64,000 bases of DNA from Dictyostelium discoideum (taxonomy: Eukaryota): positions 6,976,001 to 7,040,000 of the forward strand of contig CM000151.3 in assembly GCA_000004695.1 (NCBI GenBank), given 5' to 3'. The notes below the pieces were generated by a model, which was not told the origin of the DNA, ran no database searches, and worked only from the letters and a program-made list of their open reading frames with translations. This document shows positions 17,306-27,576 of the stretch, piece by piece. The stretch's first letter is position 1. Each line of letters begins with the position of its first letter. The translations under genes and the position numbers were made by a program.

Positions 17306-18463
17306 ATGGCAACAAGAGATAGAACCCCTTCATTTAATTTAATAAAATCAGAATACAAGAATAGAAGACCCTCAAGACACTATGGTAATGAATCAGATGA
17401 AGATAGTAATAATGTACCATTAGTATCTCTTAATAGAGCTGGAAATAATATTCATAATAACAATAATAATGACCTTAATTTACAAAAATTAAATGTATTA
17501 CCAGCATGGATGCAAAGAGTTAATGATATAGATGTAAACTTAACAAAAATTTCACAACAAAGTAAGTAATATATTCTTCTTCTTTTTTTTTTTTATTCAT
17601 TCATTCATTTATTTAAAATATTTAACCTAAAAAGATAAAATTATTAACAACAACAACAACAACAACAACAATAATAATACATAATAATAATAATAATAAA
17701 TAGTTGAAAAATTAAAAGGATATCATGATAAAAATTTATTACCAGATATGAGTATGGAAGATCAATCGGATTTAGAAAGATCAATTGAAATTACAACTGC
17801 TGAAACTACAAGAGTATTTATCAACATATTATTATTAATAAAATAATTAAATAATAAAAATACTAACATTATTAATATTTTTAGTTATTTCATAAAACAC
17901 ATGATATGATAAAAAATTTAGGTGGTAAAGGTACAATATTATCAGCAGAAGATATGAAAATGAAAAAGAATATACAATCAAGTAAATCAGCAAAATTACA
18001 ATCACTTTCATTATCATTTAGACAAAAACAAAGAACTTATTTAACAGCATTACAAAAAAGGTCAAATTCATTTTCAGATTTGTATAATGACCAAAATGAT
18101 GATGATGATGGTGAAAATGCAATCGATTTAGATTTTACAGATGAATTAAAACAAGTTGTAAATGCAATGGAAGAAGAAATCACTCAAAGAGATAAAGAAA
18201 TTAGAAAAATCGTTGCATCAATCAATGATTTATCTCATTTATTCCAAGATATAAGTGTATTGGTTGTTCAACAAGGTACTTTATTAGATAGAATAGATTA
18301 TAATTTAAATCAAACTGAAGCATATACTCAAGAAGCAGTCGTTGAAATTGATGAAACAAATAAAATACATAAAGAATATAGAACTAGATTATGTATATTA
18401 ATGATTTTAGTTGCTTTGGTTGTTGCAATGGTTTTCATATTTATTCTTAGATTCATTTTTTAA
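17306..18463 (+). CDS. Syntaxin-16/Tlg2-like Qa-SNARE, copy 3. Three exons: 17306..17561, 17704..17813 and 17885..18463.
   Basis: Same exon structure and phases as copy 1. MATRDRTPSFNLIKSEYKNRRP...LFQDISVLVVQQGTLLDRIDYNL, then TM. Confidence 0.8.
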
Positions 18464-18953: not shown

Positions 18954-21355
18954 TTATTGAGTTTGTGGTCTACTATTATTACTACTATTACTCATATTTA
19001 ATTGATGTAAAGAAGAAACGCTATTTCTAAAAGCCATACCAGAACTTTGATTTAATGAATTATTTGTTGAATTTGAACCATTTACAATTGTTTTCAAGTT
19101 AATATTTTCATTTCTTAGATAAGAATTTTCTGATTGAAGAACATCCAATTGAGTTTGAAGTTTAGAAACCAAATTTGGATCGGTTGGAGATAAAACTTGA
19201 CCATTACTAGTATTGAGAAGGTTTTGTTGTTGAAGCCAATTGGTGAGTGTGGATATCTTATCTTCAAGATAGGAAATATGAGTTGCTTGGGAGTCGAGTT
19301 TTGATTGAATTTTATTATTCTTTCTACCACTGGTACCTCTACTACTCTTTTTATATTTTGAAGATTTATAATCTCTATCTCTACTTCTGTCTCTACTTCT
19401 ATCAGAATCAGATGATCTATCTCTGGATTTATTTCTACTATCACGACTTCTACTTCTTCTTCTGTTGGAATGACTTCTTGAACGATCTCTACTTCTATCC
19501 CTACTATCAGAATCTCTACTTCTTGAACGATCTCTGCTTCTATCTCTACTTCTATCTCTATCCCTTTCTCTACTTCTATCTCTTGAACGATCTCTACTTC
19601 TATCTCTATCTCTTGAACGATCTCTACTTCTATCTCTTTCTCTATCTCTACTTCTATCTCTTGAACGATCTCTACTTCTGTCTCTATCTCTTTCTCTGTC
19701 TCTATCTCTTTCCCTTTCTCTTTCTCTATCTCTGTCTCTTGAACGATTATGTCTATCTCTTTCTCTTTCTCTGTCTCTACTAACATTTCTACTTCTAGAG
19801 TTTTTATAGGTTTTATTAGAACGATCACGGTCACGTTCACGTTCACGATCTCTTTTACTATTGCTACTACTGCTACTGCTCTTTTTCTTTTTATAAGATT
19901 TTCTATCACTTTCATATCTACTAGAGTGTTCATCAGAGCTCGAAGTATGAGAGGTTGAATCTGAACTCTCTGATAAAGAGGAGGCTCTTGATGATTGTCT
20001 AGATTTTGATTTATTTGATTTACTGGTAGAGTTATTTTCTTTATCGGAAGATGGAGATGGGGGTTTTGATAGAGCACTACCCGATGCAGATATTAATTCT
20101 CTATTGTATGCGCCATTACTACTAATACTACTATTATTACTATTTATCATAGCTGGATCTTGTTGTTGTTGTGGTATTTGTTGTTGATGTTGTAATGGTG
20201 ATTTTGGTGAGGTTGTAACCAATGATGGAATATTACCATGAGATGAAGAGGATGGTATACTACCTTCTTTCTTTGGTGAGGTTTTTGGTGGAGTTATTAA
20301 ATCAGATTGATTTAATTTAACAATATTTATAGCGTTGATCGGACTTGGAGTTTTAATTGGTTGTTGTAGTTGATGTTGTTGTTGTGGTGGTTGTAAGGTT
20401 TGAGGTTGTTGAGTGTTATTTACAACAGTTGTTGATGCTGCTGAAGATGTTGGGTGAATTGAACTATGTGCTAAACCATGAACATTACTATGTGCGCTTG
20501 CACCCAAATTACTACTGGCGTTATGGTTCGGTATACTTCCAGATGAATGGGATAAATGATGATGTTGTTGTTGTTGGTGATAAGCAGCTGCAGTAACTGG
20601 AATAGCTGTTGGTAAGGTTAATGGTACAACTGGTGGAGGAACGACAGTCGATGATGATCCAAGTGCTGTATGATTACTTGTTGGTGTAGATGTTCTACTA
20701 TGACTTGGTGTTGAACCTGGTGATGTTGATGGTGTGTGTGATGGCGTTTCAAATGGTGATTGAGTTAAATTTTCTTTAGTTTTATTATTATTATTATTAT
20801 TATTATTTGATGGATTTGTAGTTGTAGTTGTAGTTGTTGTAGTTGTAGTTGATGAATTATTATTATCATTATTTTCATTTGGAAATATCCATTCATCAGC
20901 TGAATTACTATGACCAGTATCAAATTGTGGTGAAGAAGTATTTCTAAGCATAGCAAATGAATCTTCGGATAACATTTGATATCTTTGACCTAATGGTGGT
21001 AATTTTGCCAAAATATGTTGAACTAAATAATCTGGTTTCTTTGCTTGCTTAAAGAATCTATGTTCTAAAAGTTTTGAAGGTAATGGTCTTTTAGATGGAT
21101 CCTTTTGAAGACATTTTTCAACTAAATCTTTAAAACTATGAGACCATTTACTTTCGCCATCCCCCTCCAATGATGGTGGTGGGTTTTGAAGTGTCAATAA
21201 TAAAACTTTCATTGGTGGATATTCTGCAAAAGGTGCCTTACCTCTTGCAAGTTCTAATGCTGTAATACCAAATGACCAAATATCAACTGCATAATCATAA
21301 TTAACTTGTTCCATAATTTCCTAAATTTTTTAAAAAAAATAAAATAAAATAATTA

Positions 21356-21398
<43 letters not shown>

Positions 21399-22137
21399 AT
21401 TTAAAATTTAAACTTACAGGTGCCATCCAACAAGGTGTACCAACAAAAGTATTTCTACTTGTTTCACCAGTATCAATTAATGTTGCACTAACACCAAAAT
21501 CACTTAATTGAATGTTACCATTTGAATCGATTAAAATATTACCAGATTTAATATCTCTATGAATTCTGCCAGTTTTATGAAAATAGCAAATTGCTTTCAA
21601 AGCTTCTTTGAGGATAGTGGCGATAACATGTTCTTCAAAACCTTGAGGGAATGAAAATCTCATGATATCAGAGCATGAGCCAGCTGATAAAAAATCCATA
21701 ATTACCCATAGTGACTCGTTATATACAAAACTTGTGTGGTATGCAACTACATTTGGATGATGACAAAGACTCATTGCCTGTATTTCCTTTCTAATCTCTT
21801 CTAATGATACGTTTTTACAATGCTCTAAATCTATAATCTTTATAGCTACATTCTCTTGAAATGGTAAACATATTGCACGTTGTACTAATCCGCTTCCACC
21901 TTTACCAATGGTTTCCTTAAGTTCATATTGATCTGCTGAATTTGGGTAATTTTTTCTTGGTTTTGGTGTTATTGGAGATGCTGCCGTTGTTGTTGTTGAC
22001 GTTGTTGTTGTTGTTGTTGTCATGGAGGAGGATGAAGCTAATGTCGATGATGATGATAATGCTGCTGCTGTACTTTGCTTTGAATCTATATGATGCTTAT
22101 CATGATGTTTATCATGATGATATTTATCATCGGACAT
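18954..22137 (-). CDS. STE20-family Ser/Thr kinase of the OSR1/SPAK (Fray) type with a very long low-complexity C-terminal region including an RS/RD/RE dipeptide-repeat domain. Two exons: 21418..22137 and 18954..21320.
   Basis: Exon 1 carries GKGGSGLVQRA...VAIKIID...HRDIKSGNILI...DFGVS...FVGTPCWMAP. GTAAGT donor at 21417. Acceptor tttAG at 21322-21321. Exon 2 continues EIMEQVNYDYAVDIWSFGITALELARGKAPFAEYPPMKVLLLTLQNPPPSLEG, a near-exact OSR1 signature. About 250 aa of (RDRS/RDRE)n follow. The antisense ORFs at 19115..20077 and 19247..19783 are artefacts of the repeat. Confidence 0.85.
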
Positions 22138-22569
22138 TTCTAAATGTACTTTTTATATATATATTTTCTTTTCTATCTATTTTATTAAATTAATAAAAGT
22201 GGAGTTTTTTTCTTCTTAAAAAAAAAAAAACTGCTATTTACTTATATTAAAAAAAACAAATTGTGTTGCAGTTTTTTTTTTTTGGTTTATTTTAATTTTT
22301 TTTTTTTCTATCCAAAAAAAAAAAAAATATATATTTTTGACTTGGTCTTAATTTCTCCTCTTTTAAATTTAATTTGTTGGGTAAAAAAAAAAAAAAAAAA
22401 AATGAAAAATTGATATTAGATAAATATTTTTAAATATAAAAATACAAACAAATTTTTAAATAAATAAAAAATTTGATTTTTCGATAAGTTTAGGTTTTTT
22501 ATATGTGTATTTGTGTGAGAAAATGGTGTGTTTGTAAATATTTATGTTTTTTTTTATTTTTTTCAAAAT

Positions 22570-22579
22570 AAACCCATAA
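22570..22579 (+). promoter_or_regulatory. AAACCCATAA, an exact match to the Dictyostelium upstream sequence element (DUSE) consensus that sits about 60 bp upstream of ncRNA genes.
   Basis: Single 10-mer match in a 5-kb gene-free stretch. I could not delimit a convincing RNA downstream. Confidence 0.2.
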
Positions 22580-22845
22580 AAAAAATAATTTAAAAAAAAA
22601 AATAAAAAAAATAAAAAAAAATAAAATTTTTTTAAAAAAAAAAAAAAAAAAAACAAATGAAAACACGAACAAGGCCAACCCACTTTTTTTTTAAAATAAA
22701 ATATTAATTAATATGAAAGATTTTTTTTTTTTAAAGTTTAGGGTTGTGACTACTAAAAATAACTTTATAGTTTTATATGAAAATTTTTGTATCTGTGTTA
22801 TAAATTCTGAAAAATGTGAAACTGACAACTTTTTTTTTTTTTAAA

Positions 22846-22905
<60 letters not shown>

Positions 22906-23403
22906 CAATAAAATTAATTTTACAATTGTAATAATATGTGTAACATACACAAATTGATGATGAAATGGTTGTACCTTATTATTATTATTATTAATACTAC
23001 TGTTTATCCTGGTATTTTTTTTTTTTTTTTGTTTTTGTTTTTTTTGTTTTTTTAATTTTGTTTTTTGTTTTAAAATTATTTTTTAGGAAACAAGAAAATA
23101 AAAAAAAAAAAAAAAATGAAAAAATGAGATAACAAAGTGGATTATATAGGTATTATAAATTTGGAATTGAATGATCGCATTGTCAATCTAAAATAATAAT
23201 AAAACAATTTTTTTTTTTTTTTTTTTTAAATTACCAACAATAACAACAAATGAATGAGCTATTGTTTCTTTTTTTTTTTTCGTTTGTTTATATTTCTTTT
23301 TCCTTTCCACCTCTATTGTTTATGTTGGTGTTATCACTAATTTAATTTTATTATTATTATTATTATTGTTATTATTATTATAATATTATTAATTATTGTT
23401 GTG

Positions 23404-23435
<32 letters not shown>

Positions 23436-23741
23436 TAATAGTACAAATTTTTTTAAAAAAAAAATAAATATTTATAAATAAATAATATAGGATAAACAAT
23501 AATAAATATAGGAAAGAAAAAAAAAAAAATAAATAAACACTATTGATATATTTTATGGTGGCTTTTTATTATTTAATATTATTATTATTATTTGTTTTAT
23601 TATTTATTATTTTTATTATTATTATTATTATTTGTTTAATTATTTTATTATTTTTTTTAACTCCTATATTTTTAATGGATTGGAAAGATAGGGGGTGAAA
23701 GGAAAAAAAATAAAAAAATTTAATTTTTTTTTTTAAAGATA

Positions 23742-23772
<31 letters not shown>

Positions 23773-26700
23773 CCAATTTGTGTAATATTACTACTATAAT
23801 AAACTTTGATTAATTGGTAAGGTAAAAACTATAGATAGTTTCAAAAAAAAGAAAAATTAAATTTTAAAATAAAAATAAAAAAAATTTTACATTTGTGTAT
23901 TTTTTAAAATTTTTTAATATATACAAAAAACAAAAAACAAAACCCAAAAAAAAAAAAGTTTAATTTGGAAACATAAAACAAAACATTATATCAGTGTGTG
24001 GTGTGGGGTTGTGTGCACAATAAAAAAAAAACAAAATAAAACAAAAAATAAATAAATAAATAAATAAATAAAAAACAAAGAAAAACTTTTTTTGGTGTGC
24101 GCGTGCGAAATGAAATATACTCTGGTCATTAAGAAAAAAAAAGGAAAAAATGAAATAAAATATAATGAAAATTTTTGAAATAAATAATTTATTATTACTT
24201 TTTATTATAAATATAAATAATTATTTGTTTTTATATTTTTCAAAATAAAAATAAAAATAATAAAAAAATAAAATAAAAAAAAAAAGCTGTGAATGGATAA
24301 AAACTGTTTTGGTTTTGGTTTTTTTTTTTTTGGTTTTGGTTTTAGTTTTTTTTTTTTTTTTTTTGATGATAAAAATCCAATTCAAATAAAAAAAAAAACT
24401 TTTGGATGATCGACTATTATCGAAATTCAGATTATATTGAGTGATTATTATTATTAAAAATAAAAAGAAAAAAAAGAAAAAGGCATTCTTTATTATTATT
24501 ATAATTGAAAATAGTATTAAATTATTACTTTTCTATTTTATTTTGTTTTATTTTGTTTTGTTTTTTTTTTTATTATTTTTTTATTTTATTTTTTTAGAGA
24601 ACTGCATCTGTTTTTTTTTTACTTTTTATACATACTAAATAAATAAAATAAATATTGTTGGTGTTTTTAATAAAAAAACTAACCTTATATGTTCATTTAA
24701 AATTTTTTATTATTATTTTTTTTTTTAAGCACAAAAGTGGAAAAAAAAAAAAAAAAAAAAAAAAAACCAAAAAAATAAAATAATTAAAAAAAAATAATAA
24801 AATAAATAAATAAAAAATAAAAACAAATAAAATAAAAAATGTATGTAAAAAAAAAGTGTCAAAAAAAATTTAACCACTGTTTAAACGATAAGAAAAAAGA
24901 AATCATATACACACACAAAGTAGTTATATAAAATTGGATTATTATAAAAACATTAAAATATTAAAATTTATCATTTATTATATTTTTATTTTGGACTCGA
25001 CATATTCCAAAAAAATTTTAATAGTGGAATTCAAGACAATATTATTTAATTATTTAAACCTACTAATTATAATAAAAAAATTGAAATAATGATTATATGT
25101 GTATGTATCACTGATACTGTTTAAAACATTTAACAAATTAAATTGGTAATTATTCTCCTATATATATACACTAATATTATTATTATTATTTTTTTTTTTT
25201 TTTGCGTGTTGTTTTACATTTAATTAAAAAAAAAAAAAAGAAAAAAAAAAAAAAAAAAAATAATAAAATAAATAAATAAATAAATAAAACAAATAAAATA
25301 AAAAATAGAAAAAAATAAATTAAATAATAATTCCAAGATGTATATTTTTTTTTTTTTATTTTTTTATTTATTTATTTATTTAAAAAATAAAGGGGAAAAA
25401 AAAAAAAAAAAAAATATAGGAAGGTGCACTGTTTAAATAATATAACCAAAAAAATAGATTATTTTTTTTTTTAAAAAAAAAAAATAAAATAAAATTAACT
25501 TAACTAAACAAGTAGATATTTAAAAAAGGAAAAATAAAAAAAAAAAATAAAAAATAAAAAATAATATCAACAAACTTTTTAAATTCAACAATAATTGACG
25601 AATAAAAACTATTGAAATTGAAGTAATCGAATTACCTTTTTAGTTGTTGCTTATGTATTTGTGTTTATAGTTTTATAAAACTATCCTCTTGTTGATATTT
25701 GTTAATTTATAATATATTAATGTGTATATAATAAATCTACAATTGATTTTTTTTTTTTTTCTTTTTTCTTTTTTTTTTTTGTTTTTTGTTTTGCTTTTTT
25801 TTTGTTTTTTTTTATTTATTTATTTATTTATTTAATGTTTATTTGGTGGAATTGATTTTCTTTGATTTAATAATTTTCTTTGACTAAATAAAATTATATT
25901 ATTACTATGGTTTTTATTATTTATGAGCTTATTGATCATTATACTCTATGATAAGGGGATTATGAAATGGAAAATTTTATGTGATTTTTATTTTGGAAAT
26001 TCTGGTAAAAAAAAAAAAAAAAATTTAAAAAAAAATATATAAAACTATATTCTTTTTTTTTTATGTTATTTATTTATTTGTTTTTTTTTTTTTTTTTTTT
26101 TTTATTAAATATATATAAAATAATATGTTATTTGTGAAAAAACAAATATATATAAAAAAAAAAGAAAGAGAAAAAAAAATTTTGAAGTGAGGAAAAGTAA
26201 AACTTTTTTTAAAAAAAAAAAAATAAAAAAAATAAAATTGTGAAAAAGCCGAAAGTTTTTTTTTATTTTTTTTTTTGGCTTGCTCGAAGAAATCAAAAAA
26301 AAATTTTTAGATATTTAAATTTATAAAGGGTCATTTTTTTTATTTTTTATTTTTTTATTTTTCATTTTTTTTATTTTTTTTTTTTTTGAGGATCGATTGG
26401 TTGCTCAATTATAATAATAGGAACATTGTAATAATAGTTATAAAAATAACCATTAACACCTGGTTAATAATAAAACAAAAAAATTAAATTCTCTTTTTTA
26501 TTTTTTTATTATTTTTTTTTTTTTTTTGGGGTTTTTTTTTTTTTTTTTTTAAAAATTATTAAATCATCAAAACCCAAATTTATGTTAGTCTTTTGGAATT
26601 AATTTTATTTTTTTATTCAAATAAAACTATTTTTTTTTTTTCCAAAGAATTTGGTTAACTATTTCTGAAAAAAAAAAAAAAAATTTTTTATTCATTTTTT

Positions 26701-26802
26701 TTATATCTACCTGGTCCATAAAAAAAAAAAAAAAAAAAAAAAACCAAATATATAAAGAAGTTTGTATTTGATAAAGTCAAAAAGTCTAAAATACAAACTT
26801 AC

Positions 26803-26840
<38 letters not shown>

Positions 26841-26972
26841 AAATCAAAAATAAAAAATAAAAAAAAAAAAAAAAAAAAAAAGATTGAATCCAGGAGGGCT
26901 GGTAAAAAATCAAAAACCAGTCTTTTTTATTTTTATTTTTAAACTTTTTTTTATTTTGGGCATCAACAACTT

Positions 26973-27576
26973 TTATCCGTAACAACGAATTTTATCATTG
27001 CAACCTTTGGAAGCACATTGCCCACCTTTTTCTGTTATTTTAATAATAATTAATAAAAAAAAAAAAAAAAAAAATTAGTTTTTTAAGTTGTTTGGATTCA
27101 TTATTTTTATTATTATTTATTTATTTATTTATTTAATAATTACCTAAATATTGTTGATGTTCAGTTTCAGCAGGATAAAATACACCAGCTGGTAAAATTT
27201 CAGTTGAGATTGGATCTTTATATTTTAATTGTTCTTTTTCTTTACTTGCAATTGCTTCATTCTTTTGTTCTTCATTATGATAATAAATACCAGATCTATA
27301 TTGTGTACCTACATCATTACCTTGACGATTTAATGTTGTTGGATCATGTTTAGACCAAAATAAACCTAACAATTGATTGTATGTGACTTTTTCAGGATCA
27401 TATTCCAATTCAACTGCTTCAGCACATCCAGTTTTACCACTACAAACTTGTCTATAGGTTGGATTCTCTACAGTACCGTTAGTATAACCAACTCTTGTTT
27501 TTGTAACACCTGCTACTCTTTGAAATAATAATTCAACAGACCAAAAACATCCTGCTGCAAATGTTGCTTTTGTCAT
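26973..27576 (-). CDS. msrA: Peptide methionine sulfoxide reductase MsrA. Two exons: 27144..27576 and 26973..27031.
   Basis: Exon 1 carries [32 protein letters not shown] and AETEHQQYL. The listed ORF ends where GTAATT begins (TTA G|GTAATT at 27143-27142). An AT-rich 110-nt intron follows. Acceptor aacAG at 27033-27032. Exon 2 adds [19 protein letters not shown], restoring the cysteine-containing C-terminal tail typical of MsrA. Confidence 0.7.

Follow-up and report, generated by a model that had tools for sequence, protein, structure and literature searches.

An Arginine-Rich RD/RS Domain in the Tail of a Fray-Type STE20 Kinase of Dictyostelium discoideum: Extent, Origin, and Possible Role

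Does a long SR-protein-like repeat belong to the protein kinase in whose reading frame it lies, and what could it do there? The question is raised by a gene on the minus strand of a 64,000-nucleotide stretch of the Dictyostelium discoideum genome (contig CM000151.3, positions 6,976,001 to 7,040,000; this whole stretch is called the window below). The gene is located at 22137..18954, and its splice reconstruction gives two exons and a protein of 1028 amino acid residues (aa). An initial examination of the letters alone (the sequence-only reading) had described it as an OSR1/SPAK-like kinase followed by an RD/RS/RE repeat of about 250 aa. The gene itself is not new; what is undescribed is the interpretation of its tail as a Dictyostelium-type RS/mixed-charge domain on a STE20 kinase that lacks two RFxV-related devices, the CCT domain and the GRFx[V/I] motif. 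The gene is probably the annotated D. discoideum fray2, whose product is also 1028 aa long; the exact sequence is absent from the searchable collections. Exact-sequence look-ups of the 1028-aa protein and of its 786-aa exon 2 open reading frame (ORF) returned no record and yielded neither strain variants nor transcript contigs, and literature searches found no publication on this protein.

One Reading Frame from the Kinase to the C-Terminal Helices

As far as can be judged from the genomic sequence, the RD/RS/RE repeat is translated within the kinase polypeptide, as the sequence-only reading had assumed, because the frame through it is open, its GC content is exon-like, a zipper follows in frame, and the orthologue is collinear. 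A continuous minus-strand ORF of 786 codons (21314..18954 in the ORF list) covers the protein from the kinase C-lobe through the stop codon. Exon 1 (21418..22137, minus strand; aa 1-240) begins with the ATG at 22137, contains a His-rich N-terminus, a Ser/Thr tract, and the kinase N-lobe with the activation segment, and ends after 720 nt at the in-frame donor GCACCT/GTAAGT. The intron (21321..21417, minus strand; 97 nt, GTAAGT...TTTAG, 3% GC) interrupts the kinase motif WMAP/EIME, and its removal rebuilds the conserved kinase motif GTPCWMAPEIMEQV, which can be aligned to SPAK. Exon 2 (18954..21320, minus strand; aa 241-1028 and the stop codon at 18954-18956) is one open frame containing the remaining kinase domain, the linker, the RD/RS domain, and the C-terminal helices.

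The presence of the repeat in this protein could be an annotation artefact if the repeat came from a separate gene or an intron, or if the frame were open merely through the repeat. Low-complexity DNA does leave several frames open, and two other ORFs, 19115..20077 on the minus strand and 19247..19783 on the plus strand, overlap the repeat. Both were rejected as genes, being by-products of the repeat that encode nonsense strings of the IEVEIE and LYFYLY types. Of all the frames, only that of the kinase runs on past the repeat into the conserved downstream zipper, and it matches the collinear orthologue from Synstelium polycarpum. Exon 2 is free of GTAAGT and GTATGT donors, and its scanning in 60-nt GC windows revealed no AT-rich, intron-like segment within or adjoining the repeat; the sole windows below 18% GC are poly-Asn codons near 20810-20830. 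The GC content of the repeat DNA is 37%, as in exons, versus 3% in the intron and 6-14% in the flanks. An intron or a separate gene at the repeat was rejected because there is neither an AT-rich segment nor a strong donor site, and the artefact explanation, which the sequence evidence contradicts, is hardly credible.

Extent, Composition, and Origin of the RD/RS/RE Domain

The arginine-rich mixed-charge domain occupies aa 730-890 (19371..19853, minus strand). It is 161 aa long instead of the 250 aa or so proposed earlier and contains R70, D35, S32, and E10. The range first assigned to it, 18954-20200 (aa 614-1028), further includes a patch rich in Ser and, at the C-terminus, about 138 residues outside the repeat, with two predicted helices. 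Runs of at least two R[DSE] dipeptides account for 128 residues of the domain, and the longest strict R-x alternation extends unbroken over 78 residues (aa 766-843). When the same 161 residues were shuffled 10,000 times, the longest alternation averaged 7.1 residues and reached 22 at most; the observed alternation is far beyond chance for this composition. No second comparable R-x run was found in any frame of the window. The net charge of the unphosphorylated domain is +28. All 16 RDRS and 29 RDR motifs of the protein lie inside aa 730-890, as does a conserved island, RDSRNKSRDR, at aa 866-875. Twenty of the 32 Ser residues are in an R-S-R context; there is one Thr, and no Ser precedes a hydrophobic residue.

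The RS/SR dipeptides cover 0.45 of the domain and 0.64 of its best 50 aa, which agrees with the SR-protein-like composition noticed at the outset. In the definition of Manley and Krainer, an SR protein reportedly has one or two N-terminal RRMs, and an RS domain is said to have at least 50 aa, more than 40% RS content, and consecutive RS or SR dipeptides. The RS character of the repeat holds as regards RS content and SR-like composition, but not as a pure RS sequence: consecutive RS dipeptides are rare (the longest run is RSRSR), and most Ser residues are in RDRS or RSRD contexts. To judge by its sequence, the label of an arginine-rich mixed-charge domain of the (RDRS)n type fits the repeat better than that of a pure RS domain. 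The criteria of Greig et al. (10.1101/771592) for mixed-charge domains comprise a length of more than 60 aa, a charged fraction of at least 0.7, a positive:negative ratio from 1:0.7 to 1:1.3, and a high R/K ratio. The 101-aa core (aa 752-852), with a charged fraction of 0.79, a ratio of 1:0.70, and R47 K0, falls within these limits.

In composition, the domain matches known RS and mixed-charge domains, namely those of SR proteins, U1-70K, NELF-E, CPSF6, and D. discoideum NKAP, by both the mixed-charge and the 40% RS thresholds. It shares the RDR and RDRS motifs with D. discoideum SR proteins and with the RS domain of NKAP; these motifs were called a signature of D. discoideum SR proteins (PMC5173251). 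Unlike in SR proteins, the domain is attached to a protein kinase and not to an RRM or another RNA-processing domain, and it has few consecutive RS dipeptides. Pfam yields only kinase-type models for the protein and no RRM. A HMMER search with the 101-aa core alone retrieved just three short unnamed metagenomic proteins; bias correction discards compositional matches in such a search. The resemblance to RS domains, as seen at the sequence level, is compositional, and homology cannot be claimed.

The confidence of the AlphaFold2 (AF2) prediction is low across most of the RD/RS region. In the single-sequence mode, AF2 gives aa 730-802 as one helix, with a block-mean predicted local distance difference test score (pLDDT) of 53-79, and the RE/RD-rich first half might accordingly be a single stable charged alpha-helix, a rigid spacer fixing the distance between the zipper and the kinase. 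Single alpha-helix domains depend on opposite-charge pairs at i and i+4, whereas the strict R-x alternation puts like charges at these positions. Neither Asp nor Ser favours helix formation, AF2 predicts disorder for the RS-rich half (pLDDT <45), and a helix from single-sequence AF2 carries little weight where the sequence is of low complexity. Such a spacer is very unlikely.

The degenerate TCTNTC-type DNA repeat noted in the sequence-only reading was recovered by Tandem Repeats Finder (TRF), which detected periods of 6, 12, 24, 30, 48, and 78 on the plus strand, with consensus units such as TCTTTCTCTATC. The tandemly duplicated RD/RS core, aa 754-843 (19512..19781, minus strand), has a TRF period of 78 with 3.5 copies and an 81% match, and periods of 30, 24, and 12 are nested in it. 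Three exact copies of the 24-mer AGTAGAGATCGTTCAAGAGATAGA are present, one 35-nt stretch is repeated exactly, and CGT-TCA, an unusual codon pair for Arg-Ser, appears again and again along the array. Given that the copies share synonymous codon choices, the duplication apparently took place in tandem at the DNA level.

The only dictyostelid orthologue retrieved, the S. polycarpum protein P0001, is collinear with the D. discoideum protein; an exhaustive HMMER search among 1.84 billion representatives found no further one. Upstream of the arginine-rich stretch, the two proteins share the blocks KPPSPSSDKE, SRQSSR.SSLS, and SSSDEH, and downstream they share KIQ.KL..QA.HISYLE.KI.TLTNW followed by the zipper. 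Between these blocks, P0001 has a 64-aa R/S/D/K-rich stretch with the identical island RDSRNKSRDR. On the evidence of this alignment, a shorter R/S/D/K-rich domain is common to both dictyostelid species compared. About 90 excess residues of the D. discoideum protein mostly have no Synstelium counterpart and coincide with the tandem array. Since this excess (aa 754-843) matches the DNA tandem repeats, the enlargement from 64 to 161 aa appears to have occurred by tandem duplication of 24-78-nt units and to be specific to the D. discoideum lineage.

This growth could have been largely neutral, with slippage or unequal exchange in an AGA/GAT/AGT purine-rich minisatellite lengthening a tolerant disordered linker; the product would be a flexible charged spacer without targeting function. 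The synonymous codons shared among the DNA repeats, which indicate recent duplication, are in line with this explanation, as are the length of 161 aa against 64 aa in Synstelium, the other expanded tracts of the kinase protein (poly-T, poly-N, and Q/H runs), and the low AF2 confidence over most of the region. As slippage repeats are common and the expansion is recent, the length of the domain may in itself be neutral. Its composition, however, is conserved beyond the recent expansion, because an R/S/D/K-rich stretch with the identical RDSRNKSRDR lies at the same position in a distant dictyostelid. In addition, the composition differs from the N/Q/T/S type found elsewhere in the protein, the sequence fits the motif type of D. 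discoideum SR proteins (PMC5173251), and the 64-kb window has no second repeat of this kind. Neutral expansion is a possible explanation of the domain as a whole, though somewhat unlikely.

A Fray-Type Kinase without the Usual Docking Devices

The kinase domain, aa 71-330 (21051..21927, minus strand, spanning the intron), matches Pfam Pkinase with E=1.6e-60. The catalytic motifs VAIK, HRD, and DFG are intact, Val occupies the DFG+1 position, and the T-loop Thr lies inside NTFVGTPCW. A search of solved structures gave 341 bits for SPAK and 329 bits for OSR1, with MST3 as the next family at 249 bits. Since the SPAK and OSR1 scores are well above that of MST3, the catalytic domain is, by sequence comparison, of the Fray/GCK-VI STE20 type, and the OSR1/SPAK-like assignment of the kinase was confirmed. 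All 60 matches listed in the solved-structure search belong to the STE20 group (SPAK/OSR1, MST, and MAP4K/TNIK), and no CMGC kinase is among them.

The order of elements proposed earlier was also borne out: the kinase is followed by a conserved region, then by a low-complexity part of Ser/Thr/His/Gln type, and then by the repeats. The conserved region, aa 331-395 (FKQAKKPDYLVQHILAKLPPLGQRY...ADEWIFP; 20856..21050, minus strand), had been regarded as CCT-like. SPAK can be aligned with it as far as about residue 320, and the region is kept in Synstelium, Balamuthia, and plant homologues. Because the alignment is with the SPAK segment directly after the kinase domain, the region is identified from its sequence as a PF1-type extension and not as a CCT domain. 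Pfam OSR1_C (PF12202) has no match at E<=1 in the 1028-aa protein and none at E<=0.01 in the Synstelium, Balamuthia, and Sphagnum relatives. For comparison across the family, the 270 closest Fray-like kinases were collected from two independent searches (271 sequences with the protein from the window). An unfiltered phmmer search (--max) of the 271 sequences with the CCT domain of OSR1 from the nematode Toxocara as a query recovered nine CCT-bearing controls (E<1e-7), while the protein under study was absent at E<=10. The CCT-like domain was rejected on the grounds that neither OSR1_C nor this control-validated query matches.

The protein resembles OSR1, SPAK, and Fray in its kinase domain, to which theirs are closest among the solved structures, in the preserved T-loop Thr, and in the PF1-type extension with its W-x-F element. 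Unlike OSR1 and SPAK, it has no CCT/PF2 domain and carries instead a long disordered tail, the RD/RS domain, and a C-terminal leucine zipper. With the CCT/PF2 domain absent, no docking to RFx[V/I] is expected. Motifs of the RFx[V/I] type are ligands of CCT domains. The GRFx[V/I] motif occurs in 212 of the 270 closest homologues and in two of 271 shuffled sequences; it was found neither in the 1028-aa protein nor in Synstelium P0001. Among the 271 kinases, the CCT domain (nine proteins) and GRFx[V/I] (212 proteins) never co-occur, and the dictyostelid pair has neither. Given that RFx[V/I] is a CCT ligand, CCT-like domains in other proteins, e.g., WNKs, may dock the plant and amoebozoan kinases that have no CCT domain of their own.

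The closest full-length relatives are these CCT-less plant BLUS1-like and amoebozoan kinases, and the top named matches include a Balamuthia 'fray2'; the label of a WNK-pathway kinase used at first is not supported by them. The main text of the Dictyostelium kinome paper leaves WNK unmentioned and calls both FRAY kinases uncharacterised. The CCT-less GCK-VI kinases of plants and Amoebozoa (BLUS1-like, with the database name 'fray2-like') share with the D. discoideum protein an LPPLG-type extension and a C-terminal zipper. In their moss and charophyte members, as here, mixed-charge stretches rich in R/D/E lie after the kinase and before the zipper. The dictyostelid proteins differ from these relatives in having no GRFx[V/I], and in none of the relatives is there an (RDRS)n domain that compares with the one described here in length or in density of arginine.

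The tail was said to be atypical for this kinase family, and the comparison supports this: among the 270 Fray-like kinases, an RS-like tail was found only in the Synstelium orthologue, a strict R/D/E mixed-charge window only in two Sphagnum proteins, and none comes close to the D. discoideum domain, whether in length or in density of arginine. Several other bryophyte and charophyte homologues have looser stretches rich in R/D/E. Mixed-charge stretches of R/D/E-rich type are located downstream of the kinase domain in moss, charophyte, and lycophyte homologues (P0075, P0117, P0092, P0067, P0012, and P0011), for instance as REREEREHRKYDEREHR repeats in Sphagnum. Where the zipper is kept, such stretches precede it, often between two GRFx[V/I] motifs. 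Given these tails in moss, charophyte, and lycophyte homologues, the arginine-rich charged segment may be older than Dictyostelia or may have arisen repeatedly.

Several other parts of the protein were delineated. The low-complexity linker, aa 396-654 (20079..20855, minus strand), comprises 259 residues with S46, T35, P30, N26, Q24, and H16. The conserved Ser-rich acidic patch, aa 655-705 (KPPSPSSDKE...SRQSSRASSLSESSDS...SSSDEH; 19926..20078, minus strand), has blocks identical to those of the Synstelium orthologue and is followed by a KKKK cluster at aa 717-720 (19881-19892, minus strand). Predicted helix 1, aa 904-945 (KIQSKLDSQATHISYLEDKISTLTNW...; 19206..19331, minus strand), has a block-mean pLDDT of 87-94 over most of its length in the single-sequence AF2 prediction and is near-identical in Synstelium. 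Predicted helix 2, aa 955-991 (LVSKLQTQLDVLQSENSYLRNENINLKTIV; 19068..19178, minus strand), a leucine-zipper-like coiled coil, has a block-mean AF2 pLDDT of 91 over most of its length. Its leucines are spaced by seven residues (zipper sequence LQTQLDVLQSENSYLRNENINLK), and in a MAFFT alignment it corresponds to the C-terminal zipper of Balamuthia, of the CCT-less homologue P0013, and of plant homologues. When only the C-terminal 138 aa served as the query of a word-indexed homology search, no match was returned. At the other end of the protein, the His-rich sequence HHDKHHDKHH, aa 7-16 (22090-22119, minus strand), is coded by a 12-nt tandem repeat. Histidine-rich tracts are named among the sequences possibly sufficient for speckle incorporation (10.1101/771592, introduction); the tract at aa 7-16 is short.

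The convergent neighbour gene at 17906-18463 (plus strand), with an upstream ORF at 17306-17569 (plus strand), encodes a protein that looks syntaxin-like because of its SNARE domain (Pfam E=5e-7) and C-terminal transmembrane helix. The 3' ends of this gene and the kinase gene are about 490 nt apart. In the roughly 5 kb upstream of the kinase gene (22200-27000), there is no ORF of at least 60 aa except low-complexity F/K/I-rich strings; this stretch is extremely AT-rich down to about 22950 and is unusually long intergenic DNA for a compact-looking genome. The P0001 gene model from EukProt starts, at aa 1-146, with a methionine sulfoxide reductase domain (PMSR, E=5e-57) that is complete and is joined to the kinase. 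This fusion is probably a merged model of two neighbour genes, and no MsrA-like ORF was found upstream of the kinase gene in the window.

Possible Role of the Arginine-Rich Tail

The RD/RS domain would, by analogy with known RS and mixed-charge domains, be a phospho-tunable module that targets the dictyostelid Fray kinase to the nucleus or to speckles; we put the probability of this reading at about one half. By the same analogy, the kinase may work in the nucleus. In the mechanism proposed here, the C-terminal zipper would dimerise the kinase, and the (RDRS)n/(RDRE)n domain would provide multivalent arginine contacts through which the dimer would enter the nucleus and speckle-like RNA-processing bodies. 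Phosphorylation of the 32 serines (20 of them in R-S-R) would tune the net charge and hence the residence of the kinase there. When fused to GFP, the RS domain of DdNKAP, which is rich in RDR and RDRS, gives a punctate nuclear signal (PMC5173251). Speckles of HeLa cells take up synthetic RD repeats of at least 30 units (RD30 to RD60) and natural mixed-charge domains rich in arginine but not their lysine counterparts, and RS domains act like mixed-charge domains that phosphorylation can tune (10.1101/771592).

The prediction for the catalytic domain is a preference for Thr with a hydrophobic residue required at +1, a combination favoured by non-PAK STE20 kinases (PMC6445471). Given this preference, the Val at DFG+1, and a domain with one Thr and no Ser-hydrophobic pair, phosphorylation of the domain serines in trans by SRPK/CLK-type kinases would be more plausible than phosphorylation by the kinase itself. 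On the same preference, the idea that the RS serines are phosphorylated mainly by the kinase itself was rejected.

Several points weigh against the targeting role. The positive:negative ratio of the whole 161 aa is 1:0.62, slightly beyond the range published for mixed-charge domains as long as Ser is unphosphorylated; it becomes 1:1.05 when every Ser is counted as phospho-Ser. Consecutive RS dipeptides, the classical SRPK substrate, are scarce. The longest part of the domain is a recent DNA-level expansion in the slippage-rich coding sequence of D. discoideum, and the orthologue comparison rests on one species, S. polycarpum. No localisation, phosphorylation, or transcript data on this protein were found in the literature, and Dictyostelium nuclear speckles are poorly defined (PMC5173251).

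A different role would be in cis: by analogy with BLUS1, the charged domain, the acidic Ser patch, and the zipper could together set kinase activity through autoinhibition or dimer-dependent activation, with release by phosphorylation. BLUS1 is likewise a GCK-VI kinase, and its C-terminal region exerts an autoinhibition that phosphorylation lifts (PMC8254492). The acidic Ser patch (aa 655-705) near the +28 basic domain could pair with it electrostatically, and the conserved C-terminal zipper is consistent with such regulation. However, the BLUS1 element is located directly after the kinase domain (residues 337-367), and the part beyond 367 is dispensable (PMC8254492). Most homologues do without the arginine-rich domain, and docking of the tail onto the kinase domain is backed by no structural model. 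This makes a cis-regulatory tail rather improbable.

The targeting role has parallels among other kinases. CLK1-4, CDK12/CDK13, CDK11, and PRP4K also combine a protein kinase with an RS-like low-complexity domain, and their RS domain targets the enzyme to speckles and to splicing or transcription substrates. In those kinases, all of the CMGC group, the RS domain is N-terminal, whereas here the kinase belongs to STE20/GCK-VI and the domain is C-terminal and followed by a zipper. The well-studied RS-domain kinases (CLK, CDK11/12/13, and PRP4K) are, to our knowledge, all CMGC. The Fray/OSR1/SPAK kinases, for their part, are known for the cytoplasmic control of ion transport through CCT-RFxV docking.

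A bolder and distinctly doubtful proposal is that the Fray kinase of Dictyostelia was rewired: the CCT domain and GRFx[V/I] would have been lost, and an RS-like domain gained and then expanded, giving a dimeric STE20 kinase resident in nuclear RNA-processing condensates. If so, this would be a splicing- or transcription-associated kinase outside CMGC, possibly linking stress or osmotic signalling to RNA processing. If the domain is inert, it would be a clean example of a tolerated charged-repeat expansion in a conserved signalling protein. If it does target the kinase, tandem DNA expansion can quickly tune such a domain; and if the RS-like domain replaces docking, low-complexity targeting domains can move a conserved kinase to another compartment.

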